Source: Gammaproteobacteria bacterium (GTDB lineage Bacteria > Pseudomonadota > Gammaproteobacteria > JADZEE01). Taken from it: a stretch of 24,000 bases of DNA. Of this stretch, positions 1 to 21,223 are shown in pieces (positions within the stretch are counted from its first letter, which is position 1; each line of letters starts with the position of its first letter). A model generated the notes under the pieces. It was not told where the DNA came from. It was given only the letters and a program-made list of their open reading frames with translations, and ran no database searches. Position numbers and translations under genes: made by a program. The DNA lies in assembly GCA_020850735.1 (NCBI GenBank), contig JADZEE010000027.1, positions 1 through 24,000 of the forward strand. Reading direction: 5' to 3'.

Positions 1-1971
1 GAGGCCAAGCGAGCGGCCATCAACCCCGCCGAGGCTGAGGTGCAGGCGAAGGTCTACGCCGCGCAGCTCAAAGTGCCCTATGTCTTCCTCGCCAACGGCG
101 AGGAAATCCGCTTCTGGGAATGGCAGCGCGAAGCCTTCCCCCGCGTCATCAAGACGTTTTTTTCGCAGGGAGACCTTGAACGCCGTGCCGCAACCGGGCA
201 TATGCGGCGCGACCCGCTCACGATTCCCATCGACAGGCACATTGTCGAGCGCGATTACCAAACCGATTGCGTAGACACGCTTTGTCAGGAAATGAATGCA
301 GGGCGGCGCAAGATGCTCGTTGAAATGGCGACCGGCACCGGCAAGACGCGGACTTCCGCGGCCTTGATCAAACGCCTGTTCGAAGCGAATGCCATCACAC
401 GCGTTCTCTTCCTCGTCGATCGCATCCCGCTCGCCAAGCAGACCGAGGACGCATTCGCCGAGCACCTGCCGGATTTTCCGGCTTACGTGCTGCGCGCCGG
501 CCGGCGCTTTCAGGACGAAAAACGCATCACGATCACCACGCTGCAAAGCATGGTGAACATTTATCACGAGTACTCGTCGGGCTACTTCGATCTCGTGATT
601 TCGGACGAGTGCCATCGCTCGATCTACGGCAAGTGGAGCGGCGTCCTCAAGCATTTCGACGGCGTGCAGGTCGGCCTGACCGCTACGCCGTGCATCGCCA
701 ACCCGGAGGATTTCGGCGACGATGAGGACAAGCTCACGATTCGTGACACGCTGCGCTTCTTCGAGGTCGAGGTGCCGACCTACAGTTACAAGCTCAAGGA
801 CGCCATTCGCGACGGTTTCCTGGTCCCGTATCAGATCTACAAAGCCAAGACCGTCAAGACCGCCGCGGAGGGTGGTTTTCCGGTCAGCCGCGGCGAGCTC
901 GACTGGAGCGCGATGGATCAAGGCACGCGTGCCGAGCTCGAACAGCTTTTTGGCAATGAGCAGAGCATCATCATCGATCCGGCGGCGCTGGAGCGGAAAT
1001 TCACCATCCCCGAACGCAACCGCGCCATCGTGCGCGAGTTCCGCGACGTGCTGGAAAACGGCTATACCGACGCGAAGGGGATCGTCCGCAAACCGCTGTT
1101 GGGCAAGACCATCGTCTTCGCCGTGACCAAGCGCCACGCCGAGACGCTCGCACAGATGCTCGACGCGGCCTATGCCGGCGAGAAACCGTCCCCTGAAATC
1201 CGCTATGCGGACTACGTCGTCTCCGGTATGGGTGCGGACGACACGGTCGACGGCATGACGAAGATCAAGCGGTTCAAGAAGGAGAAATTTCCCCAGATTA
1301 TCGTCTCCGTGAACATGCTCGATACCGGCTTCGACTGCCCGGAGGTCGTGAATCTCGTGTTCGCGCGGTTCACGAAATCGGCCATCCTCTACCGGCAAAT
1401 GCGCGGACGCGGGACGCGCAAGTTCAAGGGCAAGCCTGTGTTCACCATGTTCGACTTCGTCGGCGTCACCGACTACCACGGCGACGAGGACGAGGGCGGC
1501 GAAGGCGGCATCGTGGTCGCTCGTCTGCCGAAGAGGAAGTACGAGCCTCGGCGGTTGCTCTCGCTCGACATCAACGACCACATCGACCCGACCACGCGCG
1601 AGTGGGTCACCATCGATGAGAACGGAAACATGGTCTTCCCCGAAGCCTCGGAAGCGAAGGCCGCCGCGCTCGGGGCGTGCTTCGAGGCGTGGTTTCTTGC
1701 CCGGGCGGACAGTCTCACGCCCGATCAGGAGCGCTGGCTCCGCGTCGTCGGCAGCCAGCTCCGGGCAAACGCCGACACGATGGAGGAGTTCACTGCCGGG
1801 CACTTCGCCTTCCATCCCTTCACGCTGATGGGCGGCCTGCCTGAGGCCATCCGGATCTTCGGCGGCGACGAGAACGTGGACGCCGTGCTTGAGTCGCTCA
1901 ACGACGAGGTGTTCGGTGCCGACGAGCCGATGACAGCCGCCGCACTGCAGCCGGGCGCACGGCCCTCATAA
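1..1971 (+). CDS. hsdR: Type I restriction enzyme R subunit (HsdR), 5'-truncated by the window edge
   Basis: Frame 1 is open from base 1 (EAKRAAINPAEAEVQAKVY...), so the listed GTG at 40 is internal. The window starts inside the N-terminal nuclease domain (ExK 'EAK' at bases 1-9, QxxxY 'QAKVY'). SF2 helicase motifs: Walker A 'MATGTGKT', DEAH-type 'SDECHRS', 'LTATP', motif VI 'QMRGRGTR'. The C-terminal tail (LTPDQERWL...FHPFTLMGGL...IFGG) looks like the EcoEI-type R C-terminal domain. hsdM and hsdS follow directly. Confidence 0.9.
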   Translation, partial: EAKRAAINPAEAEVQAKVYAAQLKVPYVFLANGEEIRFWEWQREAFPRVIKTFFSQGDLERRAATGHMRRDPLTIPIDRHIVERDYQTDCVDTLCQEMNAGRRKMLVEMATGTGKTRTSAALIKRLFEANAITRVLFLVDRIPLAKQTEDAFAEHLPDFPAYVLRAGRRFQDEKRITITTLQSMVNIYHEYSSGYFDLVISDECHRSIYGKWSGVLKHFDGVQVGLTATPCIANPEDFGDDEDKLTIRDTLRFFEVEVPTYSYKLKDAIRDGFLVPYQIYKAKTVKTAAEGGFPVSRGELDWSAMDQGTRAELEQLFGNEQSIIIDPAALERKFTIPERNRAIVREFRDVLENGYTDAKGIVRKPLLGKTIVFAVTKRHAETLAQMLDAAYAGEKPSPEIRYADYVVSGMGADDTVDGMTKIKRFKKEKFPQIIVSVNMLDTGFDCPEVVNLVFARFTKSAILYRQMRGRGTRKFKGKPVFTMFDFVGVTDYHGDEDEGGEGGIVVARLPKRKYEPRRLLSLDINDHIDPTTREWVTIDENGNMVFPEASEAKAAALGACFEAWFLARADSLTPDQERWLRVVGSQLRANADTMEEFTAGHFAFHPFTLMGGLPEAIRIFGGDENVDAVLESLNDEVFGADEPMTAAALQPGARPS

Positions 1972-1988
1972 CGGAAGGACACAACGCA

Positions 1989-3611
1989 ATGCCCCTGACC
2001 CCCGAGATGCGCCGCTCGATCGAACAGATCCGCGACTACCTGTACGGCGGCGGCTACCCCGATCCGGTCAGCAATGCCGAGCAGCTCGCGTTCCTGTTCT
2101 TCTTCTATCTGATCGAGGGCATCGACGCCGAGAATGCGGCCCGGGCCAAGGTGCTCAAGCGGAAGCATGAGAGTCTCTTCGGCGGCTCATGGACCCTGAA
2201 GAACCCGCTGAACGCCCTTGAGAAGGGCGAGACGACGATCCCGAAAGAGCGCTTCCGCTGGTCCGTCTGGGCCAAGGGCCTTTCCGGCGAGCCGCTCGTG
2301 CGCTTCGTGCGCGATGAGGTCTTTGCGTTCTTCACCGAGGTGGCCGGGAACGGCGCCGTCAACTTCATGCACGGCGCGCGCCTCGGTATCGACGAGCCCA
2401 CCGTGCTGACGCAGGTCGTGACCCTCGTCGATGGCCTGCGGCTGGATCGCTCGGATGCGGACACCAAGGGCGACCTGTTCGAGCACGTCTTGAAGCAGAT
2501 CAAGCAGGCGGGCGAGCTGGGCCAGTTCCGCACGCCGCGCCACATCATCCGCGCCATCGTCGAGATCATCGATCCGAAGATCGGCGAGACCATCTACGAC
2601 CCGGCGGCGGGAACGGCCGGGTTCCTGGTCGCAGCCTACAACCACATCCGGCTTGCGAACTCGTCGCCGGGCGGCATCCAGAGCGTCGATTTCGACGGCA
2701 AGGTGCAGACCCGCGGCCTCGGCGACAAGCTCTCGGCCGCGCATGTCTCGGCGCTCCAGAACCAGACTTTCTTCGGTAATGATGTCGATCCGAAAATGGT
2801 GCGCCTCGCCACGATGAACCTCACGCTGCGCGGCCTGCCGAACGTGCGCATCCTGCTGCGTAACGTCCTGACCACCACGTTTGATGTCGAGCGCAAGGCC
2901 GAGCTGGGTCTGCCGCAGGAGGGCTATCACGTCGTCCTCGCCAATCCGCCGTTTTCCGGCAGGGTAGACCGGGATCGGATCGTCGATGACGTGAAAGTCG
3001 GGACGACCACTGCAACCGAGCTGCTGTTCCTCAAGTACATGATGGACAGCCTGCGTCCGGGCGGGCGCTGCGGCGTCATCGTGCCCGAGGGCGTGCTGTT
3101 CGGATCGACCGGCGCCCACAAGGAGCTGCGGCGTCAGTTGATCGAGAACAACCGCGTCGAGGCGGTGATGAGCCTGCCGGGCGGGGTATTTCAGCCGTAT
3201 TCCAGCGTGAAAACCTCGGTGCTTTTCTTCAGGAAAGGCGGCAAGACCGAAAACGTGCTTTTCCTGCACGCGGATAACGACGGCTACAAGCTCGATGCCA
3301 ACCATGACCAGCCCATCGAAGCCGATGACTTGCCGACGCTGATCACCGCTTATCGTGAGCGCGAGGCGGGACTGAAGGCTTGGGAAAAGCGCGATCCGAA
3401 AGCGGAGTGGAGCGGGCAGTGGTGGTTTGCCGATGAGGCTACGCTCCGGGCGAACGACTTCAACCTGTCAGCCGGGCGTTACCGTCCCATGAGCCAGCAG
3501 CAGGTTAAGCACCGGGACCCGCGCGAGCTGCTGGACGAACTGGCGGCCATTGAGTCCGAGATCGTCGAAGAAGTTGAAGCGCTGCGAGCGGCGCTGGGCG
3601 AGGCTGCATGA
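1989..3611 (+). CDS. hsdM: Type I R-M N6-adenine DNA methyltransferase subunit (HsdM)
   Basis: ATG at 1989 is preceded by GGAAGGA. AdoMet-binding motif I 'DPAAGTAGFL' and catalytic motif IV 'NPPF' (LANPPFSG) are present. 540 aa. Its stop overlaps the hsdS start (ATGA at 3608-3611). Confidence 0.93.
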   Translation: MPLTPEMRRSIEQIRDYLYGGGYPDPVSNAEQLAFLFFFYLIEGIDAENAARAKVLKRKHESLFGGSWTLKNPLNALEKGETTIPKERFRWSVWAKGLSGEPLVRFVRDEVFAFFTEVAGNGAVNFMHGARLGIDEPTVLTQVVTLVDGLRLDRSDADTKGDLFEHVLKQIKQAGELGQFRTPRHIIRAIVEIIDPKIGETIYDPAAGTAGFLVAAYNHIRLANSSPGGIQSVDFDGKVQTRGLGDKLSAAHVSALQNQTFFGNDVDPKMVRLATMNLTLRGLPNVRILLRNVLTTTFDVERKAELGLPQEGYHVVLANPPFSGRVDRDRIVDDVKVGTTTATELLFLKYMMDSLRPGGRCGVIVPEGVLFGSTGAHKELRRQLIENNRVEAVMSLPGGVFQPYSSVKTSVLFFRKGGKTENVLFLHADNDGYKLDANHDQPIEADDLPTLITAYREREAGLKAWEKRDPKAEWSGQWWFADEATLRANDFNLSAGRYRPMSQQQVKHRDPRELLDELAAIESEIVEEVEALRAALGEAA

Positions 3612-4858
3612 ATTGGCCGGAAAGGACGCTAGGGGACGTTTGCGAGATCAATCCTCGTCTACCGCGCGATCACGGTCTCGCGGACGACATGTCAGTTTCT
3701 TTTGTCCCAATGGCGGCGGTTGACGAGGTATCAGGCGTCGTGCGGGACAAGCAGCAACGCCCATTTCTTCAGGTTAAGAAGGGGTATACCAGTTTCCGTG
3801 ACGGCGATGTGCTGTTCGCCAAGATCACGCCCTGCATGGAGAATGGGAAAGCCGCTGTCGCGAGTGATTTGCTCAACGGAGTCGGCTTTGGCTCGACGGA
3901 GTTTCACGTTCTTCGACCAAAGGCCGGTGTGTTAGCTGAGTGGATTTACTACTTCGTAAGGAGGGAGCCCTTCCGTAGGGAGGCGAAGCGGAATTTCACT
4001 GGGACCGCCGGGCAACAGCGCGTGCCGGCAACTTTCCTTGCGAACTGTCGCATACATATTCCGCCTCTCGACGAGCAACGCCGGATTATTGATCTGCTCT
4101 CCCGCGCCGAAGGAATTATCAGACTGCGGCGCGAGGCGCAGAAGAAGGCCGCCGAAATCATCCCCGCGCTCTTCATCGACATGTTCGGCGACCCGGCGAC
4201 GAATCCGAAGGGGTGGGTCGAAACGACACTTGGAAATGTCGTTGACGAGTTTCGCTACGGAACCTCTCAGAAATCGGGAACGCTCGGACTGCCGACGCTA
4301 CGAATCCCGAACGTCATTGGCGACAGACTCGACCCGACGGAGATCAAACTCGTCTCCGTGCCCGACGTTGAGGCCAATCGCCTGCGTCTGCGCGACGGCG
4401 ATTTCCTCTTTGTTCGCACCAACGGAAATCCCGACTACGTTGGGCGGAGCGCCGTCTATGAATCGCATGTCATGCGGAACGCGGGATTCGATGGCGACAA
4501 CTGCCTCTATGCCTCCTACCTGATTCGAGCGCGCCTAAAGCTCGACGCCGTCAACCCCCGGTACCTTCAGTCCTTCCTATCGACTTCCGAGGGCCGCAAG
4601 CGTCTCCGCGAGCAGGCGCGGACATCGGCAGGGCAGTACAACATCAACACCGAGGGTCTAGCCAGTATCCGTATTCCGCTGCCATCCATTCAGCTCCAGA
4701 CTGACTATGAAGAGCGTTGCCGCCCGTTGTTCGGACTTCGAGACCTACAGTCAGTGGCGAGTGCGAAAGCAGAGGGCGCCTTCAGCGCCCTTGTCGCGCG
4801 GACGTTTTCTGGGGCCAAGCAGGCACACGACAACCCGGTGGAGGTTGCCGTCGCATGA
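3608..4858 (+). CDS. hsdS: Type I R-M specificity subunit (HsdS)
   Basis: 416 aa with two variable target-recognition halves separated by conserved helical regions ('PPLDEQRRIIDLLSRAEGIIRLRREAQKKAAEIIPALF' centrally, 'LPSIQLQTDYEERCRPLF' distally). It sits after hsdM with a 4-bp overlap. It looks more AT-rich than hsdR/hsdM, as expected for a swappable specificity gene. Confidence 0.9.
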   Translation: MNWPERTLGDVCEINPRLPRDHGLADDMSVSFVPMAAVDEVSGVVRDKQQRPFLQVKKGYTSFRDGDVLFAKITPCMENGKAAVASDLLNGVGFGSTEFHVLRPKAGVLAEWIYYFVRREPFRREAKRNFTGTAGQQRVPATFLANCRIHIPPLDEQRRIIDLLSRAEGIIRLRREAQKKAAEIIPALFIDMFGDPATNPKGWVETTLGNVVDEFRYGTSQKSGTLGLPTLRIPNVIGDRLDPTEIKLVSVPDVEANRLRLRDGDFLFVRTNGNPDYVGRSAVYESHVMRNAGFDGDNCLYASYLIRARLKLDAVNPRYLQSFLSTSEGRKRLREQARTSAGQYNINTEGLASIRIPLPSIQLQTDYEERCRPLFGLRDLQSVASAKAEGAFSALVARTFSGAKQAHDNPVEVAVA

Positions 4859-5025
4859 AGTACCCATATGAAGACATGAGTGAGGACCAGTTCGAGAAGC
4901 TCGTCGCCCTCATCTGTCAGAAGTTGCTCGGCATATCTGTGCAACCGTTCGCAAAGAGGCCAGACGGCGGGCGCGACGCGCTTGGCCGCACGGAGCAGAG
5001 GATCAAGCATTGTCTATTGTCCTGA
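4855..5025 (+). CDS. 56-aa ORF resembling only the N-terminal part of an Mrr-like/PD-(D/E)XK restriction-endonuclease domain (small protein or gene remnant)
   Basis: Internal ATG of the listed ORF 4717..5025. ATG 4855 overlaps the hsdS stop (ATGA), and GGAGG lies 10 nt upstream. The sequence MKYPYEDMSEDQFEKLVALICQKLLGISVQPFAKRPDGGRDA fits the 'xxDFExLvxxLLxxlG...F..g.DGGxD' opening of Mrr-cat-type domains. It stops 15 codons later, before any (D/E)xK strand. Its 3' end overlaps the Argonaute start by 16 nt. Confidence 0.4.
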   Translation: MKYPYEDMSEDQFEKLVALICQKLLGISVQPFAKRPDGGRDALGRTEQRIKHCLLS

Positions 5026-7202
5026 ATGCATTCCGGCTGAAAGTCCCGGACTTGTACCTTGAAGCCCGCCAGGTTTCCTACGACCAGGAAACACTTGAAG
5101 GCCTTCGCACGAAGCACGGCACTACCCACGCCTTCCGCCGACAGGGCGAGAGCATCCTTGTATTCTCGCCAGACGGAAACTTTCCCGTATCCGGTGCGAA
5201 GCAGACGATTGGGCTCAAGGACAATTTCGGCATTTTCTGCTTCTTGGTCAAGGACGGACTGACGCGGCATCTGGCCGGTCTTGGCCGTCGTCCTGTCGGC
5301 TTCACGCCCATCGAACTGGTGAGCGCTAAGCCTGAAGATAATCTTCTCGTTCCGATTCTCGGAGAGGCCTACCCTTTTCAAGTCTGCGCCAAGTACGCAA
5401 TCCACACGCGCTACGTTCAGGGCCATCCCAGTCTGGTCATTGACTGCACCACGCGGCGGGTGCTGAAGGAGACGTGTCTGTTTTTCCTTCGAGCCGGTTT
5501 CGATCTCAACGGCCGCTATGTTGCAATTGAGGAAGAGGACGGATACCGGAAGTTTCTCGGGTCGGTGAGCGCGCAGAAGGGTGACACGCTTTATGTGACG
5601 CGGCCTGACGGACAGACTGAGCAAGTCGAAGCGAAAGACATTTATCTGGAAGCCAGCCGGACGAACTTCGACGACTACGTATCCCATACGCATGGTGCGC
5701 AGAAGGACGCAATCGTCGAGCGCATCCGCCAATCTGTGTCGTCGTTTAATGGCGGCGAGAACAAGAAGACTCGCATCGATACGCTCAAGAGATACGTACA
5801 GTCGAAGTCCATTCCCCTGATCGACGGAACCCGCATTGAAATCGAGGACGCGCCTGATATTCAGCGTCACTGCGACCAGATGCCGAAGCCGGTATTCGTC
5901 TTCAATGACAACGGCGAGGCCGATTGGGTGGAGAAAGGCCTGACGCAGTACGGTCCATATACAAAGCGCACGTTTGACCGAAACGATCCGTCTATCTGCG
6001 TCATCTGTGCGCAACACGACAAGGGGCGCGTGGAGCAGTTCGTCCGCAAGCTCCTAAAAGGGATTTCCTCAAGCAAGTATTTCAGCAGTGGCCTTGAAGG
6101 TAAGTTCACTCTGGGAACCAGCCGCGTCGAGGTGTTCGCAACGGCCACGGACAGTGTGGAGGCATACAAGAACGCGATAGAAGCGGCGATCCGGAAGAAA
6201 GCGGAAGACGGGGGACGCTGGGACCTCGCGCTTGTTCAGGTCCGGCAGTCGTTCAAGAAGCTCAAGGTGACGGAGAATCCCTACTACCTGGGGAAGAGCC
6301 TTTTCTTCCTGCATCAGGTTCCTGTTCAGGACTTCACGATAGAGCTTCTCGCCCAGTCGGACTACTCGCTGGGGTATTCGCTCAACAATATGGCGCTAGC
6401 CTGCTACGCGAAGATGGGCGGTGTTCCTTGGCTACTCAAGTCCTCGCCGACGCTTTCCCACGAGCTGGTGATAGGCATTGGCAGCGCAAATATCGGGCAG
6501 GAGCGAGGCGCCGATAAGCAGCGGATCATGGGTATTACCACCGTGTTCTCAGGGGACGGCAGCTACATCGTTTCGAATACTTCGAAGGCTGTAGTGCCGG
6601 AGGCCTATTGCGAGGCGTTGACGGCGGTGCTCGGAGAGACAATCGAGAAGATCCAGAAGCGCATGAACTGGCAAAAAGGCGACACGATCCGCCTGATCTT
6701 TCACGCGCAGGTCAAGAAGTTCAACAAAGAGGAGATTGGCGCCGTCCGTGCCGTGATCGACAAGTACCGCGAATATCAGGTCGAGTATGCGTTCCTGAAA
6801 ATCTCCGAGGATCACGGGCTGCACATGTTTGACACTGCTCCGGCAAGGGAGAAGAAGGGGCGATTGGCTCCCCACCGTGGAAAGACGTTCAAGCTCTCAA
6901 ATCACGAAATGCTTGTCTACCTTATAGGTCAGCGCGAGCTGCGGCAGGATACCGATGGGCATCCGCGCGGCGTAATCCTTGATGTTCACAAGGACTCGAC
7001 CTTCAAAGACATCAAGTATCTCAGTGCCCAACTTTATAGCTTTGCGTCGCACTCGTGGCGCAGCTATTTTCCGAACCCCATGCCTGTGACGATCAGCTAT
7101 TCCGACCTGATCGCCAGGAATCTCGGGTGGATGAATCAGCTTCCGGGATGGAATGATTCGATAATGATCGGGAAGATTGGGCAATCCCAGTGGTTTCTGT
7201 AG
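5010..7202 (+). CDS. Long prokaryotic Argonaute (pAgo), catalytically degenerate (long-B-like)
   Basis: 730-aa ORF. TTG start at 5010 with GAGGA 7 nt upstream. The N-terminus 'SIVLNAFRL' resembles the LNxF opening of pAgos. MID/PIWI signature: 'VTENPYYLGKSLFFLHQVPVQDF...YSLNNMALACYAKMGGVPWLLKS...HELVIGIGSANIG'. Y-x3-K...Q...K residues match a 5'-end binding pocket. By-eye alignment to the TtAgo DEDX positions gives G (GIGSA vs GFDAG), H (RLIFHAQ vs LLLRDGR) and a retained D (SYSDLIA vs HLADRLV). Confidence 0.88.
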   Translation: MSIVLNAFRLKVPDLYLEARQVSYDQETLEGLRTKHGTTHAFRRQGESILVFSPDGNFPVSGAKQTIGLKDNFGIFCFLVKDGLTRHLAGLGRRPVGFTPIELVSAKPEDNLLVPILGEAYPFQVCAKYAIHTRYVQGHPSLVIDCTTRRVLKETCLFFLRAGFDLNGRYVAIEEEDGYRKFLGSVSAQKGDTLYVTRPDGQTEQVEAKDIYLEASRTNFDDYVSHTHGAQKDAIVERIRQSVSSFNGGENKKTRIDTLKRYVQSKSIPLIDGTRIEIEDAPDIQRHCDQMPKPVFVFNDNGEADWVEKGLTQYGPYTKRTFDRNDPSICVICAQHDKGRVEQFVRKLLKGISSSKYFSSGLEGKFTLGTSRVEVFATATDSVEAYKNAIEAAIRKKAEDGGRWDLALVQVRQSFKKLKVTENPYYLGKSLFFLHQVPVQDFTIELLAQSDYSLGYSLNNMALACYAKMGGVPWLLKSSPTLSHELVIGIGSANIGQERGADKQRIMGITTVFSGDGSYIVSNTSKAVVPEAYCEALTAVLGETIEKIQKRMNWQKGDTIRLIFHAQVKKFNKEEIGAVRAVIDKYREYQVEYAFLKISEDHGLHMFDTAPAREKKGRLAPHRGKTFKLSNHEMLVYLIGQRELRQDTDGHPRGVILDVHKDSTFKDIKYLSAQLYSFASHSWRSYFPNPMPVTISYSDLIARNLGWMNQLPGWNDSIMIGKIGQSQWFL

Positions 7203-8350
7203 AAAAAGAGAACGCCTACCAGTTGCGCGAGTACCTTCAGCGTAAGGTATCCGAAAGCGCGCACGGCGATCCGTTCAAATCGTCCTTTCTGCGTTTTCTA
7301 GGACTCTCGAAGGACGGCGGGTCAGCTTTCGACGCTACCAAGCTCTCCTTGTACCAGCGGTGTGCGGTCTCCGGGCTTGACGTTTGGGGAGTGACCGTAC
7401 CTGCTCAGGATGTGTCGCGACTGCTGGGGCAGGCCGCCAAGATCGACTCTACGCCCCGGCCCTGGGTGTCTGATGTTTTCGGCGTGATGGCCGTGAAGCG
7501 GCTCGTCGACAGGCTGAACGACAACCGCATCGTCCGTGAGTTCGAGCACTGGACTGCTGGCTTCCTTGCGCAGCAGGTCGGCGGTGACCACCTCAATCTC
7601 TTTGAAAAGGACATCGCGACCCTTATCCGCAGTGGGGAGTCCGCCGTCTATGCGACCGCCTGCGTTCCGCTCTTTCTTCATTATCAAGCGATCAGGAGGA
7701 TTGACGATCACCAGCTTCGTCTGTCCCTCATAAATCGGTTCATGCACGAATTCCGGCAGCAGGCGCAAGCAGATTCTTCGACGGCGCTACTGGGGGTGAT
7801 GGTCTACGTCTTCGACCAGATCAACGAAGATGTCGCCGTTGTGCCGCCGAAGGGCTGGAGCCTCGACGATCTTCTGATCTTTCTGGAGCATGTTCCCGTT
7901 GGCCTAAAGCGCTGGACTTGGGAAGACGCGGGGCGCACGAAAGGCGCGGTACCTGCCAAATGGCGCGTTGATAACGAATACCACGTCCAGAATCTGCTCT
8001 ACGTGTTGCTTGCGCCCGTCTTTAGTGACATCGCGGATGAAGTATATCTGCAACCAGTTGGGCAGAAGACGCCGCGGGTGGACTTGTACTTGCCGCCTCT
8101 GAACACAATCATCGAAGTTAAGTATCGGAAGGACGCGAAGAAGTCGTTTCCGATGCTCATCGGCGAGATCGCCGAGGATGCGTCTCTCTATCGGGCCGAC
8201 GCAAAATACAAAGATGTACGGATTGTCAGCTTCCTGTGGGATTGCACGCGCGCGACGCAGGAGCACACAAAATTCAAAGAGGGCGTATTGAAGATCGACG
8301 GCATGAATGGGTGCGTCGTGATCAGTGCGCCATCGACAATGAATGAGTGA
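7190..8350 (+). CDS. pAgo-associated protein with C-terminal PD-(D/E)XK nuclease fold motif and unrecognised N-terminal domain
   Basis: 386 aa. GTG 7190 overlaps the pAgo stop by 13 nt; an alternative TTG at 7223 is possible, so the start is uncertain. The C-terminal region 'DNEYHVQNLLYVLLAPVF...TPRVDLYLPPLNTIIEVKYRKD' gives the E...D...E-x-K arrangement of restriction-endonuclease-like nucleases. The first ~250 aa match nothing I recognise. Confidence 0.75.
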   Translation: MVSVEKENAYQLREYLQRKVSESAHGDPFKSSFLRFLGLSKDGGSAFDATKLSLYQRCAVSGLDVWGVTVPAQDVSRLLGQAAKIDSTPRPWVSDVFGVMAVKRLVDRLNDNRIVREFEHWTAGFLAQQVGGDHLNLFEKDIATLIRSGESAVYATACVPLFLHYQAIRRIDDHQLRLSLINRFMHEFRQQAQADSSTALLGVMVYVFDQINEDVAVVPPKGWSLDDLLIFLEHVPVGLKRWTWEDAGRTKGAVPAKWRVDNEYHVQNLLYVLLAPVFSDIADEVYLQPVGQKTPRVDLYLPPLNTIIEVKYRKDAKKSFPMLIGEIAEDASLYRADAKYKDVRIVSFLWDCTRATQEHTKFKEGVLKIDGMNGCVVISAPSTMNE

Positions 8351-8505
8351 TCTCGGCCGTACTGCCGAAGCGCGGGACGGCGACCGAACGTCGTAGTTGT
8401 GGCCGGTGCTGCGTTGCCAGGCCTGAATTCCCACCCGACTGTTAGCATTGCTAACGGCCAGCCAGTCATGCCATGAATGCGGAGTAAGTTGCTACGGAAC
8501 TTTCT

Positions 8506-8847
8506 TCATAGTTCGAGGATCACACTGTCAACCGCAAGAGGTCGGCATTCGTTGAACGACCATCTCGCACACAGTGCGCCCAGGCATTCACCGAAGACAT
8601 CACTGGACGCACCTGCACGATCTTGAATTTCGTTGGCTGTGTCAGCCCGCTTGATGCTCGTTACGCATCGCCCACGCTCGAAAGAGCGCCCGAAACCGGC
8701 CTCATCTCCTGAAAGCCGGTGGCCGCAAGGCTCGGAGGTATCCGTAAGCAACCGCCTCTCGGGGCGCTCAGCAATGCGCATGACGCAATAGTTCGCGTTC
8801 CTGCCGCAGTTCGTAAGTGGCGCCAGCAAGCGGAATTCCGTTTGCAT
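8506..8847 (-). CDS. Possible Cys-rich hypothetical protein or degraded gene (very uncertain)
   Basis: Internal ATG (8847) of the listed ORF 8506..9018, with GAGG 9 nt upstream. Third-position GC looks moderately coding-like. No recognisable family. The upstream part of the listed ORF is Ala/Arg/Trp-rich and unconvincing. Confidence 0.15.
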   Translation of the reverse strand: MQTEFRLLAPLTNCGRNANYCVMRIAERPERRLLTDTSEPCGHRLSGDEAGFGRSFERGRCVTSIKRADTANEIQDRAGASSDVFGECLGALCARWSFNECRPLAVDSVILEL

Positions 8848-9048
8848 CGGCGTCAACCTCGAGCGGGGTTTCTCTCCGTTCTCAGTCTGTACCGCTGCCC
8901 CTGCTGAACGCTTGGTGCGCCAACCGCGCGTCCATGCGTAAGGCTCGCGGGCGGACCCCTGCCAGCACGCCGCGACGGCCTTGGCCGCCGCAATCCCTGC
9001 GCCAACATGTGTCCGCACTCCTGCGGCAATCCGTGGCTGCGCCAGCCG

Positions 9049-9191
9049 GCGTCGTCACTGGCGGCTTGCTGCTAGTGACGACGCGCCATATGCCTCAGTC
9101 ATCAACGAGTTATAGGGTGCTGGCGCAAGTGACGACCCCTCGCGATGCGCTCTTCTGGCGCATCGCACCGTAACAACCGCGCAATGCGGTT
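9049..9191. repeat. Cluster of GC-rich inverted repeats plus a reiterated 9-mer in a non-coding region
   Basis: Perfect 11-bp inverted repeat GCGTCGTCACT (9049-9059) / AGTGACGACGC (9074-9084) with a 14-nt spacer. The 9-mer AGTGACGAC recurs in direct orientation at 9128-9136. Perfect 9-bp inverted repeat GCGATGCGC (9142-9150) / GCGCATCGC (9158-9166) with a 7-nt loop. 6-bp inverted repeat AACCGC/GCGGTT (9175-9191). Confidence 0.6.
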
Positions 9192-9482
9192 CGTCCATCG
9201 GCCCGTTCCTCGACGGGCATCGTTCCACGTCGCGCGCAATCCGCGCACCCCTGAGCCTTGGGTGATGGCTCATCTCGAAGGATCGACTTCCAACAGGAAG
9301 CGGCCTCGATGCCAATGCCACGTGTCGGGCAGGCAAGCAGCAAAAACTACGGCACAAAACGGGAGTGGTGTCCCGGGTCCCTCGAAGTACTCGTCCTGCC
9401 CAGGCAGGCGAGACGGACAGAAACACTAACCGGACATGCGGCACGCACCAGGGGCAATTGAGCAACGAACGAAGAGGACGCG

Positions 9483-10349
9483 ATGAGAGACCTGAACTAC
9501 GAACTGAAGCAACTCTGCCTGCGCAACCGCGACGGCAGCTTTTCCACGCAGTACGCGCGCGAGCGCATTCTGACCATGATCGCCAATCAGTTGCACGAGA
9601 TGGGCTTCCATCACATGCAGGCGGCGAGCCTGAAGCCTAAGCATGTCGAGGCACTGGTCGAGCGCTGGAAGGCGGAATCCCTTTCCGCCGGCACGATCAA
9701 GAACCGGATGACCGAGCTGCGCTGGTGGGCCGAGAAAGTGGCCAAACAGAATGTGCTGGCTCGCGCCAACGAATTCTACGGCATCCCGCGACGGAATTAT
9801 GTGACCAATGTCAGCCGGTCACGGGTGCTCACCACCGGGGACCTGGAGAAGCTCACCGATCCCTGGACGCGCATGTCGCTCAAGTTGCAGGCGGCCTTCG
9901 GTTTGCGGCGGGAGGAGTCGATCAAGATCCGGCCCGAGTGGGCCGACCGCGGCGACCGGCTCGCGCTCAAGGCGAGCTGGACCAAGGGTGGGAGGGAGCG
10001 CGAGATTCCGATTCGCACGGCAGAGCAGCGCCTAGTACTCGACGAAGCCAAGCAGCTCGCGGTCCGCGGAAGCCTGATCCCAAAGGCGTCGAGCTACGTC
10101 CAGCAGTTGCAGCGATTCAAGGCGCAGTGCATGGCGGCGGGAATTCAGCACGTGCACGGCCACCGCCACCAGTACGCGCAGGATCGCTACCGCGTACTGA
10201 CCGGCTGGGCCTGTCCCGCGCAAGGCGGGCCGACCTCGAAGCAGCTCACCTACGAGCAGAAAGCTATCGATCGCCAGGCCCGTCTCGCGATCAGCGCGGA
10301 GCTGGGCCACGGTCGCGAAAGAATCACATCGGTCTATCTCGGCCGGTAG
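9483..10349 (+). CDS. Tyrosine recombinase/integrase-family protein (plasmid/ICE-type 'integrase domain-containing protein')
   Basis: 288 aa. ATG 9483 is preceded by GAAGAGGA. N-terminal SAM-like region 'LKPKHVEALVERWKAESLSAGTIKNRMTELRWW'. Catalytic-type residues in order: 'GLRREES' (R), 'HGHRHQYAQ' (HxxR), 'LGHGRERITSVYLG' (H...Y). Confidence 0.8.
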   Translation: MRDLNYELKQLCLRNRDGSFSTQYARERILTMIANQLHEMGFHHMQAASLKPKHVEALVERWKAESLSAGTIKNRMTELRWWAEKVAKQNVLARANEFYGIPRRNYVTNVSRSRVLTTGDLEKLTDPWTRMSLKLQAAFGLRREESIKIRPEWADRGDRLALKASWTKGGREREIPIRTAEQRLVLDEAKQLAVRGSLIPKASSYVQQLQRFKAQCMAAGIQHVHGHRHQYAQDRYRVLTGWACPAQGGPTSKQLTYEQKAIDRQARLAISAELGHGRERITSVYLGR

Positions 10350-10437
10350 CGGATTCTGACGGCGGCAATCGAACGCGGACGACGATGCTGTTAGCAGTGT
10401 TGACACGCCGCATTGACGTGAAATTGGAACCGCCGGC

Positions 10438-10740
10438 ATGCGCACACGCCTGAACGCGCCGCGGAACGACTCCGGTCGCGAATCGGAGGTGCTGACCTTC
10501 AGCGCGCTGCTGGTGGTGCTTGGCCGTCGGTCCCGGCAGTCGATCTACGATCTGATGCGGCGGGACCCATCGTTCCCTCGACCGCGACAGCTCGGCAGTG
10601 AGTTCTCCATCGGCTGGCTGCGGGCCGAGGTGATGCAGTGGTTGCATTCTCGGCCGCTCGTCGAACTGAACGGGCTCGATGCGGTGGAACGGCGGAGGCG
10701 GGCGCGAGGAACGAGGGCGGCAGGGGTGGCCGGGAAGTAG
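10438..10740 (+). CDS. AlpA-family (prophage CP4-57-type) helix-turn-helix regulator / excisionase-like protein
   Basis: 100 aa. 'LTFSALLVVLGRRSRQSIYDLMRRDPSFPRPRQLGSEFSIGWLRAEVMQWL' fits the AlpA pattern (l..El...lG.SrstiY.l...g.FP.P..lG.r...W...EV..Wl). It lies next to the recombinase gene. No strong SD at ATG 10438. Confidence 0.72.
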   Translation: MRTRLNAPRNDSGRESEVLTFSALLVVLGRRSRQSIYDLMRRDPSFPRPRQLGSEFSIGWLRAEVMQWLHSRPLVELNGLDAVERRRRARGTRAAGVAGK

Positions 10741-10770
10741 TCAGGCGAGCCCGTCGCCCCAGCCGCGCTT

Positions 10771-10852
10771 CCCCTTCTATTGGAACGCGCGTAATATGTA
10801 CACGATTCTGCACGTTTAACGCGCCACTATTTTTCGCCCCAGGAGGCTTGCA
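10771..10852 (+). promoter_or_regulatory. Putative promoter/operator of the antitoxin-toxin operon
   Basis: The only clearly AT-rich stretch upstream of the antitoxin gene. Good -10 candidate TAATAT (10792-10797) with a weak -35 TTCCCC 17 bp upstream. Palindrome TGTACA (10797-10802) and the related TGCACG (10809-14) are 12 bp apart centre-to-centre, reminiscent of TGTACA-core operators described for yefM-yoeB (from memory). AGGAGG lies 7 nt before ATG 10853. Confidence 0.3.
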
Positions 10853-11143
10853 ATGGGAATCTCCACCAACGACGTTATTCCGCTGTCGCAGGCCCGCGCC
10901 AACTTTTCGGAGCTGGCTGAGGAGGTCAAGGCCGGCGCCGAGAAGATCATCACCAAGAACGGCGAGAGCTACGTGGCGCTGATCGACGCGGAGCGGTTGG
11001 ACCATTACCACCGGCTGGAGCGCGAACGCATTCACTTGCTGTTGATCGATGAGGCGGGCAAGGGGCTCGACGATGTCGCCGCCGGCCGCGTGAAGGATGC
11101 CCGCGGCACAATCCAGTCGATCAAGCGCCGCCGCAGCGCGTAA
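10853..11143 (+). CDS. Phd/YefM-family type II antitoxin
   Basis: 96 aa. 'ISTNDVIPLSQARANFSELAEEVKAGAEKIITKNGESYVALIDAERLDHY' is the canonical Phd/YefM N-terminal fold sequence. Strong SD. A toxin gene follows 20 nt downstream. Confidence 0.85.
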   Translation: MGISTNDVIPLSQARANFSELAEEVKAGAEKIITKNGESYVALIDAERLDHYHRLERERIHLLLIDEAGKGLDDVAAGRVKDARGTIQSIKRRRSA

Positions 11144-11162
11144 GACGGTCGGAGCGGTCCCG

Positions 11163-11570
11163 ATGGCGAGGAAGCCTGTCGTCCGGCTCACCGCGAACTT
11201 CGAGAGCAACCTCGCCGACATCGAGCGTTTTCTGACCGAGGCTGAAGCGCGCAAAGCTTACGACGCGCTGCTCGACGAACTGCTGGACACCGTGATTCCG
11301 AACCTCGAACGGTTTCCCGGCATTGGACGGCCGTTCCTCGCGCATCCGGCGCGCTCGGTCGAAACCTCGAATGCGCTGGACGCATTGCGCGCGAAGTTAT
11401 CGGCGCTGACTCCGGACCCGGAAGCACTGCGCGAATACATCCTCGACCACTATCTGGTGCTGTACGCGCAGATTGACGCGAATCTCTATCTGCTGGCGAT
11501 CAGGCATCACCGCCAACTGTCGTTCGATTTCCAGTCGCACTGGGGCGGGACTTCGTCGATGCCAAAGTGA
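11163..11570 (+). CDS. ParE/RelE-family type II toxin (with an internal insertion)
   Basis: Internal ATG (11163) of the listed ORF 11097..11570, 135 aa. 'LADIERFL...NLERFPGIGRP' and C-terminal 'YLVLYAQIDANLYLLAIRHHRQL' match the ParE/RelE pattern (..rfP..Gr......y.i.Y......i.il.i.H.r). It sits directly after a Phd/YefM antitoxin. It is longer than typical toxins because of a ~30-aa insert (ARSVETSNALDALRAKLSALTPDPEAL). Confidence 0.75.
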   Translation: MARKPVVRLTANFESNLADIERFLTEAEARKAYDALLDELLDTVIPNLERFPGIGRPFLAHPARSVETSNALDALRAKLSALTPDPEALREYILDHYLVLYAQIDANLYLLAIRHHRQLSFDFQSHWGGTSSMPK

Positions 11571-11764: not shown

Positions 11765-12604
11765 TTACGGAGTTTCGCGGAAGGCCGGCGACTGCATGCG
11801 CACGATGGCCATCGCGTTCAGCGGGATGCGGGGATTCGGCTGGGCGTATAAGCAGCGGTCGGGCATCGGCAGCGTGCCACCAGTGGCGCGGGCCGCGAAG
11901 TAGTCCTCGACCTGCGCGCGCCATTCGCCTTCCGGCGCCTGCGGATTCAAGCCGGCGGCGTACAGGCGCAGCAGCGTCGCGATGGTGTTGTTCACCAGCG
12001 GGACGTACATGGGGTAGCAATAGGTCACGCGGATCTTCAGCAGGTTGGCGTCCTGGATGCTCACACCGCCCTTCACCGTGGCCGGGCGGTACATCAGGTT
12101 GTCGTTCGGGATCTCGTATCCGCCGCTGACGTCGACACCGTGATTCGATGTCTGGAAGTGCTCCGGGCGCGGATTGAGGATCTCGATGTCGACCCACGTG
12201 TCATTGGTGGCGCCAGCGGGGATCACGGGTCCCGGGGGGGGATCGCCGCCGGCCTGGCAGGCGTACTCGTCGCCGCCGTACAGCTCGGTGCGAACCACGC
12301 AGCGGGCGCGGCGGACGCCGTCCGCCGTGTCGTCGTGCGTGAACAGCGGCGCGAGGCCGCGAACGAAACCGTTCTCGATGAAATTCATGCGCGCGTTGTT
12401 CAGCGATCCGGAGCGGGCGGCTTCGAACGCGGCGTAGTTCAGGGTGATCTTGGCGTGATAGATGAGTGCGAACTGCAGGGCGCCGAACACGAGCAGCAGC
12501 AGGACCGAGCCGACGATCACGCTTTCGACCATGGCTTGGCCCCGTTGTCGCGACCGCTGCACGAAACGGTACCGCATGGACGGAATTCTAGCAGGGCGGC
12601 TCAC
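11765..12604 (-). CDS. TadE/TadG-like pseudopilin (Flp pilus assembly)
   Basis: 279 aa. Leader plus hydrophobic segment 'QRGQAMVESVIVGSVLLLLVFGALQFALIY' (G-x4-E prepilin-like junction and TadE-like helix). GTG 12604 overlaps the upstream stop (GTGA); an alternative ATG lies at 12577. Last gene of the tad operon. Confidence 0.7.
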   Translation of the reverse strand: MSRPARIPSMRYRFVQRSRQRGQAMVESVIVGSVLLLLVFGALQFALIYHAKITLNYAAFEAARSGSLNNARMNFIENGFVRGLAPLFTHDDTADGVRRARCVVRTELYGGDEYACQAGGDPPPGPVIPAGATNDTWVDIEILNPRPEHFQTSNHGVDVSGGYEIPNDNLMYRPATVKGGVSIQDANLLKIRVTYCYPMYVPLVNNTIATLLRLYAAGLNPQAPEGEWRAQVEDYFAARATGGTLPMPDRCLYAQPNPRIPLNAMAIVRMQSPAFRETP

Positions 12605-13674
12605 GGCTCACCGCCGTTTTCGCCGTTGCGCGTGACCTCGTCCTCACCAGGGCCACTGGTCGCGGTGGCGGCGGCAGGCCCGGATTCCGGCGCATCCGTC
12701 CCGGTATCGGCGTCATCGCCGGCCGTGGCATCGTCCTCCGCGGCGCCGGTCGTGCCTGTGTCCTCGACGATACCGCCGGTCGTGACCTCGTCCGCGATCG
12801 TGCCGGCGCTCACAGCGGTGGCGGCAGGCCCGGGTTCCGTCACCGCCGGGTCGTCCGGCGCGGGTGCGGGCGGCGGCGCGTCCGCTCCGGTATCGCCGCC
12901 GTCGCCGGCCGTGGCATCGTCCTCCGCGGCGCCGGTCGTGCCTGTGTCCTCGACGATACCGCCGGTCGTGACCTCGTCCGCGATCGTGCCGGTGCTCACA
13001 GCGGTGGCGGCAGGCCCGGGTTCCGTCACCGCCGGATCGTCCGGCGCGGGTGAGGGCGACGGTGCGCCCGTCCCGGTGTCGCCAGCCGCAGCCGGTACGG
13101 TTGCCGCCCCGTCACCCGCGCTGTCGTCGGCCGCGGTCGCCGGCACGACCTCGAGCGGGGACGGCGCGGCCTGCGGCGGCGATGCCGGCGGGTTGCCGGC
13201 AGCGGTCTGATCGCCGCCTTCCAGCAGCGCGGCGACGCCGCCGAGCAGGGACCTGGCACGGTCGCGCAGGGGATCGTTCGCCGACGCGAACTGATCCATC
13301 TGCGCGAAAGTGGCCGCCGCCTCGCGCAACTGCACCACGCCCATGTTGTGCCAGGCCTTGCTCATGCCGGGTTCACGCAGCACGGCTTCCCGGTAGGCGG
13401 CGACGGCCTCGGCCGGCCGGCCGAGGCGCGCGTAGACATTCCCCAGCCGGAACCAGGATTCAGTGACCCGCGGCGCGCGCTCGGTGAGCGTCTTGTAAGC
13501 GGCGGCGGCCTGGTTCCAGTCGCCGCCGTCGTAGGCGGCCGCCGCGCTGCGCTCGATGGCGTACAGATCCCCCTTCGGCGTGTCCGGGCGCGTCACGTCC
13601 TCGAGGCTGCAGCCGGCCAGCCAGGCCAGCGCGATCATCAACGCCGGCGTCGCGATCCTCGTCCGGCGGGCCAC
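12601..13674 (-). CDS. TPR-repeat lipoprotein (TadD-like) with an acidic repeat-containing C-terminal tail
   Basis: Start proposed at GTG 13674 (GGGAGA 9 nt upstream, 1 nt after the DUF192 stop) rather than the listed 13728. Lipobox 'LAWLAGC' follows the basic n-region 'ARRTR'. TPR-like segment 'WNQAAAAYKTLTERAPRVTESWFRLGNVYARLGRPAEAVAAYREAVLREPGMSKAWHNMG'. The C-terminal ~190 aa are a T/G/D/A/E-rich tandem repeat. Confidence 0.75.
   Translation of the reverse strand: MARRTRIATPALMIALAWLAGCSLEDVTRPDTPKGDLYAIERSAAAAYDGGDWNQAAAAYKTLTERAPRVTESWFRLGNVYARLGRPAEAVAAYREAVLREPGMSKAWHNMGVVQLREAAATFAQMDQFASANDPLRDRARSLLGGVAALLEGGDQTAAGNPPASPPQAAPSPLEVVPATAADDSAGDGAATVPAAAGDTGTGAPSPSPAPDDPAVTEPGPAATAVSTGTIADEVTTGGIVEDTGTTGAAEDDATAGDGGDTGADAPPPAPAPDDPAVTEPGPAATAVSAGTIADEVTTGGIVEDTGTTGAAEDDATAGDDADTGTDAPESGPAAATATSGPGEDEVTRNGENGGEP
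12668..13050. repeat. 186-bp (62-codon) near-perfect tandem repeat inside the TadD-like gene
   Basis: The landmark 'ggcaggcccgg' recurs at 12673, 12823 and 13009. Units 2 and 3 are 186 bp apart, and the first unit is 36 bp shorter. A ~140-nt block (from about 12718 and about 12904) is identical apart from 2 mismatches seen by eye. It encodes PAPDDPAVTEPGPAATAVS(T/A)GTIADEVTTGGIVEDTGTTGAAEDDATAGD. Confidence 0.85.
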
Positions 13675-13675
13675 G

Positions 13676-14029
13676 TCAGCAGGTCTCCCACACGAGCGTG
13701 TCACCCACGGCGAGCGCCAAGGCCGCATTCGCGCCCGGGGCGAGCTCCAGAGTCATCGACGCGGCCAGGCAGGCTGACAGGCGGGCCGGCGCGAGCTCGC
13801 GCACGAGCTTGACCACCGCCCAGGCCGTGTCGAGGTACACCAGGTCGATCGCGCCGCGCATGCCGAAGGTGTGCACGCAGCGGCAGCGATCGATGAGCAG
13901 CCCCGTTCCCGGAGCCAGGGGAGGACGCCCGAGCAGCCCGCGCATGCGTTCCCACGCGGTCGTCGTCAGCGAAACATCGCCGAGCAGGGTGGAATGATCT
14001 TTCTTGCGGCGCAGGCGGCCGGCGATCAC
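13676..14029 (-). CDS. DUF192 (COG1430)-family protein embedded in the tad operon
   Basis: Only the last 117 codons of the listed 400-aa ORF 13676..14878 are credible. GTG 14029 overlaps the tadC stop (GTGA). 'AWERMRGLLGRPPLAPGTGLLIDRCRCVHTFGMRGAIDLVYLDTAWAVVKLVRELAP...LELAPG' fits the DUF192 pattern (er..GLmgr..l....gml......vhtfgM...iDvvflD..g.Vv). Confidence 0.7.
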   Translation of the reverse strand: MIAGRLRRKKDHSTLLGDVSLTTTAWERMRGLLGRPPLAPGTGLLIDRCRCVHTFGMRGAIDLVYLDTAWAVVKLVRELAPARLSACLAASMTLELAPGANAALALAVGDTLVWETC

Positions 14030-14922
14030 AACGTACCTTCGGCCATGAACTTCATCACGATGGGAAATCCGAGCACCACGAAGGTGACCGGGAAGATGAA
14101 AACGATGAGCGGGAACACGAGCTTCACGGGTGCTTCCATCGCCACCTTTTCCGCGCGCGTGAAGCGTTCGTTGCGACGCTGCTCGGCCTGCACCCGCAGC
14201 ACGGCCGCGAGGCTCGAACCCATACGTTCGGCCTGGATCATCGACGTGACGAAGCTGGTGACCTCGGGGATGTCGAGGCGCTCGGCCATGCGCCGCAGCG
14301 AATCGGCACGGCTCAGGCCCGAACGCAGATCGCGCAGCACGATACCGAACTCGTTGCGCAGCGGTCCCGGCGGCGCCTTTTCCATCGCCTGGGCGAGTCC
14401 CCCCTGCAGGTTCAGGCCCGCCTCCACCGCCATGGTGATGAAGTCCAGGTACACCGGCATGGCGCGCACTACGGCCAGCTCGCGCTTGCGCCGCGTGTCG
14501 CGCAGCCACAGCGTCGGGAACAGAAAGCCCAGGAAGGGCGCGAGTATGTGCACCACGGGCGGGATGTTGACCGGCAGGGCGACGTCCATGTACAGCGACA
14601 GCACCAGGAAGAAGATGGCGGACAGGATCCGCAGCCCGATGAACTGCTCCGCGGTCACCATGTAACTGACGCCCGTCTTCTGCAGCTTGTCTTCCGTGCT
14701 CTCGAGGTATTCGTAGGGCAGAAACTGCACGAAGAAATGGGCGATGATCCGCACCAGCGGCCAAATGGGTCTCATCAGCGGCGGAATCGGATCCATGAAC
14801 GAGCGGTCCTCGTCCTCCACCATCCCGTGCAGCAGGTGGATGGTCATGAGGAAGCAGAATACGCTCAGCCCGGTGCACAGCGCGCTGACCTCGAACATAC
14901 GGTTGACGAGAAATTCCTGCAT
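14026..14922 (-). CDS. tadC: Flp pilus assembly inner-membrane platform protein TadC (T2SS F family)
   Basis: 298 aa polytopic membrane protein. T2SSF-like cytoplasmic domain 'LPVYLDFITMAVEAGLNLQGGLAQAMEK...LRNEFGIVLRDLRSGLSRADSLRRMAERL'. It is the second platform gene after the ATPase. Confidence 0.85.
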   Translation of the reverse strand: MQEFLVNRMFEVSALCTGLSVFCFLMTIHLLHGMVEDEDRSFMDPIPPLMRPIWPLVRIIAHFFVQFLPYEYLESTEDKLQKTGVSYMVTAEQFIGLRILSAIFFLVLSLYMDVALPVNIPPVVHILAPFLGFLFPTLWLRDTRRKRELAVVRAMPVYLDFITMAVEAGLNLQGGLAQAMEKAPPGPLRNEFGIVLRDLRSGLSRADSLRRMAERLDIPEVTSFVTSMIQAERMGSSLAAVLRVQAEQRRNERFTRAEKVAMEAPVKLVFPLIVFIFPVTFVVLGFPIVMKFMAEGTL

Positions 14923-14927
14923 GGCGG

Positions 14928-15809: not shown

Positions 15810-15820
15810 GGCGGGGCCCC

Positions 15821-17482: not shown

Positions 17483-17491
17483 GGCGGTTCT

Positions 17492-18793: not shown

Positions 18794-18859
18794 TGTCGTC
18801 TCATCCCCTGGTTCTATCCCATTGGTCTTGCCGGTACGCCGTCGGCGTACCGAAACGCA

Positions 18860-19450: not shown

Positions 19451-19480
19451 CTCAATCCCTCTGAACGGCTGTCCCGGTGC

Positions 19481-21172: not shown

Positions 21173-21223
21173 TGCGTTCCCCTTCCCCTGGTTTTCGGTC
21201 TCGCCGTCCGCGCTCCGCGGAGC

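Follow-up and report, generated by a model that had tools for sequence, protein, structure and literature searches.

Prokaryotic Argonautes (pAgos) of the long-B type that have lost catalytic activity can act together with a separate effector nuclease, as in the BPAN system of Escherichia coli (EcBPAN), which pairs EcAgo with the nuclease EcbAgaN. EcAgo is loaded with 5'-phosphate small RNAs of 18 to 22 nt whose abundance tracks the transcriptome, binds complementary DNA, and then recruits an autoinhibited nuclease dimer into an 8:8 complex; this complex degrades DNA nonspecifically, which leads to abortive infection against a plasmid and one phage, and the system is active in heterologous hosts without a partner restriction-modification (R-M) system (Song et al. 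2023, PMC10620215; Liu et al. 2026, PMC13535254). HsdS, the specificity subunit of type I R-M, is among the orthogroups enriched near pAgos (PMC6299218). Here, we describe a BPAN-like pair that is chained directly to a type I R-M operon in a 24,000-nt stretch of DNA (the window; contig JADZEE010000027.1, positions 1 to 24,000 of the forward strand, assembly GCA_020850735.1) from a Gammaproteobacteria bacterium of the JADZEE01 lineage.

Two other described arrangements are close enough to invite comparison. The EcoprrI type Ic R-M operon includes the gene for the anticodon nuclease PrrC, which binds the R-M enzyme until a phage anti-restriction peptide frees it; the resemblance to the present case is that an abortive-infection effector is placed within a type I R-M transcription unit or at its end. 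Defense islands, such as the E. coli immigration control region (hsdRMS-mrr), likewise place R-M beside other defense modules and undergo turnover by recombination, but the neighbors in the window share strand and reading continuity with zero intergenic bases, which is more than mere proximity.

The explanation that best accounts for our observations, to which we assign a probability of roughly two in three, is a composite defense operon in which a promoterless BPAN cassette was captured behind a type I R-M operon by illegitimate recombination. The starting point would have been an intact hsdR-hsdM-hsdS operon with the restriction endonuclease (REase)-like first gene of an ABC-3C system start-stop coupled to hsdS. 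The BPAN cassette, with a 33-nt leader, would then have recombined into codon 42 of the REase-like gene via 5 nt of microhomology, removing the rest of that gene and leaving a short open reading frame (ORF), orf56, as a scar. BPAN and type I R-M are both known parts, and it is their arrangement that is new.

Gene content and junctions of the chain

The preliminary description had listed six same-strand ORFs chained end to end, and we re-derived this chain exactly as it stood. The genes hsdR, hsdM, hsdS, orf56, pAgo, and the nuclease gene lie on the plus strand, with a 17-nt gap between the first two, ATGA overlaps at the hsdM/hsdS and hsdS/orf56 junctions, and overlaps of 16 nt between orf56 and pAgo and of 13 nt between pAgo and the nuclease gene. 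The last of these is also annotated in the E. coli and Shewanella homologs, and the 17-nt gap holds the ribosome-binding site GGAAGGA.

The pAgo gene (5010..7202) begins with TTG and encodes a catalytically inactive long-B EcAgo homolog (PADLOC pAgo_II, 954 bits, full length). It is followed by the bAgaN gene (7190..8350, GTG start) for a PD-(D/E)XK effector nuclease (PADLOC Aga_Helical-REase, 432 bits; DpnII-MboI REase domain, 1e-41). Against the chains of PDB 23wq, the pAgo aligns with EcAgo end to end and essentially without gaps (1347 bits), and the nuclease aligns with EcbAgaN over residues 1 to 385 with no gaps (594 bits). The pAgo tetrad positions G491, E531, Q567, and D699 correspond to G492, E532, Q568, and D700 of EcAgo, and the nuclease keeps D298, E309, V310, and K311, the D-EVK form of the PD-(D/E)XK motif. 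A long-B pAgo with a substituted tetrad is thus followed directly by bAgaN, and on the strength of the full-length matches, the same tetrad substitutions, and the D-EVK motif, we assign the pair from its sequence to BPAN as a close relative of EcBPAN. By analogy, the window pair would combine RNA-guided recognition of target DNA with a collateral DNase and abortive infection. The two genes and their order are those of EcBPAN, as are the G-E-Q-D inactive tetrad and the D-EVK motif; the difference is that the window pair lacks an upstream intergenic region and that a relic ORF joins it to the type I R-M operon. Of two E. coli genomes with homologs, one has a free-standing pair preceded by about 580 nt, with the neighboring type I R-M operon in convergent orientation.

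The R-M part consists of hsdR (1..1971; ResIII, 1e-36, Helicase_C, and EcoEI_R_C; PADLOC REase_I, 214 bits; DECH motif), hsdM for an N6-adenine methyltransferase (1989..3611; N6_Mtase, 1.3e-55; PADLOC MTase_I, 426 bits; NPPF motif), and hsdS for a specificity subunit with two target-recognition domains (TRDs) (3608..4858; Methylase_S; PADLOC Specificity_I, 316 bits, full-length, residues 1 to 403). The helicase/translocase core of HsdR, the NPPF methyltransferase, and the two-TRD HsdS encoded together identify the system as type I. Frame 1 is open from window base 1, so the N terminus of HsdR is cut off by the window edge. Its first 50 to 60 codons lie outside; the full-length homolog in L051, one of the related loci described below, begins about 170 nt upstream of the position of window base 1, and the HsdR nuclease domain, which also lies outside the window, is present in this 92%-identical contig. 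The three hsd ORFs appear intact, and restriction and methylation activities are predicted. GC content at third codon positions is 0.83 to 0.85 in hsdR and hsdM versus 0.70 in pAgo and the nuclease gene.

Two side observations concern the hsd genes. In L051, a higA-like HTH gene (49-380) ends 13 nt before the likely hsdR start (ATG at 377), which makes it probable that the gap-free chain continues beyond the window in the upstream direction; a toxin-antitoxin pair upstream of hsdR may supply the promoter of the operon. In addition, the TRDs of hsdS (window 3611-4059 and 4233-4836) are swapped among relatives, with flanks still 78 to 97% identical: TRD1 differs in L051, and the second half of hsdS differs on an Aromatoleum plasmid (see below) and in loci L042 to L045. 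This is the usual shuffling of hsdS specificity.

orf56 as a recombination scar

The bridge between the two modules is orf56 (4855..5025), which has 56 codons and ends 13 nt past the pAgo start. Its product weakly matches the N terminus of Mrr_cat (first 40 residues; E value of 1.4e-3, below the Pfam cut-off) and the N terminus of PADLOC REase-TIR (4e-5). Codons 1 to 42 (4855..4980) correspond to the start of a restriction-endonuclease-like gene that heads ABC-3C systems, with 76% nucleotide identity to the 5' end of such a small gene in L046 and L047. The parent ORFs encode 105 to 121 amino acids (aa) and precede CTD12, MC8, and DUF2326 genes, which marks the parent of orf56 as the first gene of an ABC-3C system (REase-like effector, CTD12, MC8, and DUF2326 ABC ATPase). 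Only the 5' stub is left, however, and the window contains no CTD12, MC8, or DUF2326 gene. With 42 homologous codons and a match below the Pfam cut-off, orf56 does not retain a complete PD-(D/E)XK domain.

The homology to the REase-like gene ends at 4979/4980, and homology to other BPAN loci begins at 4976/4977, so that the two meet in a 5-nt microhomology, ACGCG (4976..4980). From this point onward, the window matches the DNA directly upstream of pAgo in L004, L007, L010, L015, and L018. The resulting leader of 33 to 34 nt (4976..5009) contains a Shine-Dalgarno (SD) sequence, GAGGA (4998-5002), and has CAG at 4996-4998 where relatives have a TAG stop. In one group of loci (class C), it forms the last codons and TAG stop of an unrelated HEPN-like ORF, and in L004 it stands behind yet another upstream sequence. 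Because the leader is found behind such different sequences, it appears to travel with the BPAN cassette. Loci L042 to L045 keep the leader TAG, and their counterpart of orf56 has 48 codons; the change of TAG to CAG explains why the relic ORF of the window runs 13 nt past the pAgo start. Taken together, the joint identifies orf56, as read from the DNA, as a chimeric relic ORF, the scar of an illegitimate recombination. We also considered that orf56 and pAgo might form a frameshift fusion; this was ruled out, as the ORF in L042 to L045 stops at the TAG 12 nt before the pAgo start.

Could orf56 instead encode a functional small protein, such as a regulator or adaptor of the pAgo module? Its frame is open in all eight copies, even across a 3-nt in-frame insertion in L042 to L045, and its ratio of nonsynonymous to synonymous substitution rates (omega) of 0.34 between two fused lineages is below 1. 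That ratio, which rests on only 19 differences, is nevertheless three times that of pAgo. Moreover, orf56 retains just the first 42 codons of a domain of about 105 to 121 aa and lacks the QAKH part of the nuclease motif, its C terminus varies by lineage (48 aa where the TAG is kept versus 56 aa with read-through), and the 36 other BPAN loci have no such ORF. We therefore regard a functional orf56 product as very improbable.

Searches for direct or inverted repeats flanking 4976-8350 found none, so a transposon-like insertion is not indicated. Rfam and tRNA scans of the window were likewise empty, and neither a tRNA-type attachment site nor a riboswitch is therefore involved.

As a side observation on the parent of the stub, our search with the first REase-like gene of ABC-3C systems gave 105 database matches, all of at most 121 aa. 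On long contigs (L046, L047, and L054 to L059), this gene is in many cases cut at varied points, and its decay takes the form of an internal deletion (L057), an IS5 insertion (L047), or replacement. With many first genes truncated at different points, ABC-3C operons seem to be often eroded or overwritten from the 5' end.

Recurrence of the fusion and selection on it

An identical hsdS-orf-pAgo joint is present in seven independent metagenome contigs (L041 to L045, L051, and L052), and the arrangement is therefore not an assembly artifact. Three of these (L041, L051, and L052) are 92 to 98% identical to the window. The other four (L042 to L045) are 84 to 88% identical from window position 4836 onward, with an upstream hsdS that is only 29% identical. 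All seven, together with the window, represent one ancestral event in one lineage. Between the two fused lineages, pAgo shows a synonymous divergence (dS) of 0.43 and an omega of 0.11. Purifying selection has thus kept pAgo in the fused context, which implies that it is expressed there.

Beyond this lineage, the fusion did not recur. We surveyed species-level loci with at least 6 kb of upstream sequence by tblastn and phmmer, with window and E. coli type I queries that detect each other at 1e-28 to 1e-34, and found type I R-M within 10 kb of pAgo in 0 of 28 loci. The hsdRMS module by itself was found with 78% nucleotide identity (window 1-4233) on conjugative plasmid 2 of Aromatoleum aromaticum EbN1, where it is followed by a DUF262 gene.

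In L052, a separate observation was made on the cassette itself: the pAgo shares 98.5% identity with that of the window, but the figure falls to 88% over the first 180 residues of the nuclease (2423-2962), a hint of recombination inside the cassette.

Expression of the pAgo-nuclease pair

The preliminary description held that the pAgo module has no room for an intergenic promoter of its own, and this is borne out: intergenic space is zero, and a consensus scan found no sigma-70-like site scoring at least 8/12 in 4400-5010, that is, in the 600 nt before pAgo. No terminator-like site was found between hsdS and pAgo. The cassette appears to be promoterless in origin, since in other genomes it takes the form of an integron cassette, with a leader of 51 nt, or abuts other operons. 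Co-transcription from hsdR to the nuclease gene is therefore likely as judged from the DNA, and pAgo expression is most simply explained by read-through from the hsd operon. Transcription by read-through from the hsd promoter is also the step to be expected most from what the cassette brings with it, namely, only a Shine-Dalgarno sequence and a weak TTG start. Translation of pAgo would begin from its own SD, possibly aided by termination-reinitiation of ribosomes finishing orf56, which may hand ribosomes from hsdS on to the weak TTG.

The main rival explanation is that BPAN is transcribed from its own promoter within the 3' part of hsdS or orf56, in which case the close packing would tell nothing about co-regulation. 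Internal promoters in upstream coding sequence are common, promoter scans are insensitive, and hsdS does contain two weak 8/12 sigma-70-like matches (3816-3844 and 4089-4119). Neither lies in the 600 nt before pAgo, however. Further, the upstream DNA is unrelated to any other BPAN locus beyond position -33, so an internal promoter would have to have pre-existed in hsdS or orf56 by chance, and the lack of a terminator-like site would permit read-through in any event. We consider this rival unlikely, and read-through into a captured promoterless cassette remains the reading we favor.

The cassette in other genomes

A scan of one genome per species recovered 40 loci with a pAgo 69 to 92% identical to that of the window, spanning Gamma-, Beta-, and Alphaproteobacteria, Nitrospirae, Acidobacteriota, Gemmatimonas, Anaerolineales, and Desulfobulbus. 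In all 40, DNA similarity to the window is limited to the segment from 4976/5010 through 8341/8352, as would be the case for a unit that moves by itself. The TTG start of pAgo and a purine-rich SD before it are conserved in 35 of 36 homologous loci. Across L001 to L040, the leaders mostly have a stop codon (TAA, TAG, or TGA) about 12 to 13 nt before the TTG, just ahead of the SD, so that translation entering the cassette from an upstream ORF in that frame would terminate beside the pAgo start. A scan of IMG/VR for pAgo relatives gave no match, and there is thus no evidence of a phage-borne pair; tblastn against plasmids gave six pAgo matches only, too few for statistics.

The contexts in which the cassette is found are diverse. 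In six loci, an Eco57I/TaqI_C-type methyltransferase and an XhoI-like endonuclease precede pAgo, with gaps of 3 and 13 nt. In four others, 12 nt separate pAgo from an upstream series that consists of ResIII, N6_N4 methyltransferase, AAA_13 ATPase, and a HEPN-like ORF, and in L006, ResIII and an N6_N4 methyltransferase are followed by pAgo after 27 nt. Across such type II or type III-like R-M operons, the cassette follows at 12 to 27 nt. Representative R-M-linked segments, of the type II Eco57I-like/XhoI-like or the ResIII plus N6_N4 methyltransferase kind, are L011 7433-13340, L007 1736-13340, and L006 4894-13340. On JAHDXS010000001.1, an alphaproteobacterial metagenome-assembled genome (MAG) contig, all three R-M-linked contexts are represented, by one BPAN copy each. 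The remaining BPAN loci have 100 to 480 nt of intergenic DNA upstream.

A further form of the locus is of the integron type. Integron gene cassettes, in both sedentary and mobile integrons, have reportedly been found in recent work to carry phage-defense systems. In L009, L022, L028, L039, and L049, the BPAN pair is an attC-bounded cassette within an array of attC sites in the same orientation. These cassettes are about 3.55 kb long (L022 1-3623, L028 9864-13509, L039 6353-9989, L009 9873-13509, and L049 5878-9495), and in L003 and L030 at least the cassette's own attC is present. The boundary is a GTTAGAC site (GTTRRRY) 51 nt before the TTG. On the other side, some 95 nt separate the stop from an attC of about 80 nt, which folds into an imperfect hairpin bounded by TAAC and GTTA. 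Seven of these attC sites were used to build a covariance model, which gave 26 same-strand matches, in arrays, in the integron-type loci and no match in the R-M-linked loci. One array is carried by pSA70-2, a conjugative plasmid of Shewanella putrefaciens. We saw no intI gene in the retrieved flanking DNA of the arrays, nor is one annotated beside the Shewanella plasmid array, and the arrays may therefore be either integrons or clusters of attC sites that lack an integrase. The literature that we searched makes no mention of BPAN in an integron. The five attC-bounded pairs thus resemble defense-carrying integron cassettes in being promoterless and bounded by GTTRRRY and attC sites, and the window copy differs from them in having lost or never had these sites and in being fixed in a non-integron context. 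It is possible that the window leader is related to that of the integron-type (class D) cassettes through a stretch of about 12 nt (ACGCGC.TTG.CC) that BLAST missed.

Several points weigh against capture of a promoterless mobile cassette as we have described it. The window copy has no attC (covariance model, E value of at most 1) and no GTTRRRY site, and homology of the window to BPAN loci ends at the nuclease stop; involvement of an integron integrase in the window insertion is accordingly not indicated. The leader could be the tail of the class C HEPN-like gene instead of a part of the cassette. No genome was found in which hsdS is followed by an intact ABC-3C operon, L046, L047, and L054 to L059 all having other upstream genes, and the ancestral hsdS-ABC-3C state is deduced from the ATGA coupling alone. 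At a genomic GC content of 60%, scans for promoter consensus sequences are of low power, and they would miss non-sigma-70 promoters. Finally, BPAN lies directly 3' of some R-M operon in 11 of 36 loci, which leaves room for a selective link between the two.

Are the two defense layers coupled?

The preliminary description went further than co-transcription and proposed that the R-M and pAgo modules are possibly also functionally coupled, for example, with restriction products feeding pAgo guide acquisition. Neither proposal is upheld by our data. A recombination scar marks the junction, the surveyed loci have no type I R-M near pAgo, and the type I neighbor in E. coli is convergent, all of which argue against coupling beyond that of a defense island. 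As for the guides, those of EcBPAN are RNAs that mirror the transcriptome, and the system works without R-M (PMC10620215, PMC13535254); since BPAN guides are 5'-phosphate small RNAs, DNA fragments from restriction cannot serve as such.

A different form of cooperation would be that the linkage is selected because BPAN serves, like a guard of the PrrC/EcoprrI type, as a back-up when restriction is blocked or because restriction breaks, once processed, expose single-stranded invader DNA to RNA-guided sensing. In its favor, BPAN stands 3' of R-M operons in the 11 of 36 loci noted above, with three R-M types represented (type I, Eco57I-like methyltransferase/XhoI-like REase, and ResIII/N6_N4 methyltransferase) and three such pairs on one MAG contig; E. 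coli BPAN also adjoins type I R-M, the enrichment of HsdS near pAgos points the same way (PMC6299218), and the fusion has persisted to a dS of 0.43. Yet the 11 R-M-linked loci collapse to about three junction events that were spread by transfer, and no R-M system adjoins BPAN in the majority of loci for which 6 kb or more of upstream DNA is available. In any case, defense islands harbor R-M genes more often than any other kind. In E. coli VTB96935v, BPAN and type I R-M adjoin but are convergent and not in the same operon, EcBPAN protects without a partner R-M, its guides follow the transcriptome, and the window junction is a scar rather than a designed interface. Selected cooperation is, in our judgment, quite unlikely, and it is similarly doubtful that the 3' ends of R-M operons, whatever their type, are preferred sites for the fixation of BPAN owing to a benefit of co-expression with restriction. 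If such ideas were true, BPAN would provide a fail-safe by killing cells in which restriction had been evaded or inhibited, or processed restriction ends would expose single-stranded invader DNA to the RNA-guided pAgo, and the window would be the type I instance of a general two-layer operon design of R-M plus pAgo.

The comparison with PrrC leads to the same place, as no physical or regulatory link is indicated in the window, the pAgo module is autonomous elsewhere, and an obligate co-occurrence of the PrrC kind is not seen between BPAN and type I R-M (0 of 28 loci). By analogy with the described systems, the R-M operon and the captured BPAN cassette would be functionally independent layers, with no sign of biochemical cooperation. 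In the first, R-M would cut unmodified incoming DNA; in the second, BPAN would load 5'-phosphate transcriptome RNAs, sense complementary invader DNA, form its complex, and degrade DNA indiscriminately.

Genomic setting

The fused operon is part of a mobile island. Genes typical of such elements follow just downstream (9483-11570) and encode an integrase (Phage_int_SAM_2/Integrase_1), an AlpA-like regulator, and a ParE toxin together with a Phd/YefM antitoxin. Between the nuclease stop and these genes are 1.1 kb without a convincing gene (8351-9482), including a 170-aa minus-strand ORF without a Pfam match, a hairpin with 17-nt arms (9049-9084), and the palindrome GTTAGC-ATT-GCTAAC (8441-8455). 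Two segments here, 8624-8749 and 9037-9599, have counterparts of 70 to 80% identity in a Ramlibacter MAG (L025), where these lie upstream of the same integrase. On the minus strand, 11765-23842 holds a Tad/Flp pilus locus with TadE, two T2SSF proteins, an FHA-CpaF ATPase, and a secretin; a TPR protein of this locus contains a 186-nt tandem repeat (12688-13095), and its RcpC/CpaB has a long repeat-rich C-terminal extension.

Significance

Both component systems have already been characterized, and the value of the locus thus lies in its architecture and history. It shows at base-pair resolution how a promoterless pAgo cassette joins another defense operon, with the evidence of capture preserved in a microhomology joint, a relic ORF bridging two genes, and a retained ribosome-binding leader. 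Perhaps weightier are the side results that BPAN circulates across phyla as an attC cassette and that it is found behind three types of R-M operon; the two together offer a natural system for the genetics of layered R-M and abortive-infection defense. We consider the integron-cassette form and the repeated position behind R-M operons to be the most useful leads, as together they give a concrete and testable reason for the wide horizontal spread of pAgos and for how frequently they lack regulation of their own.

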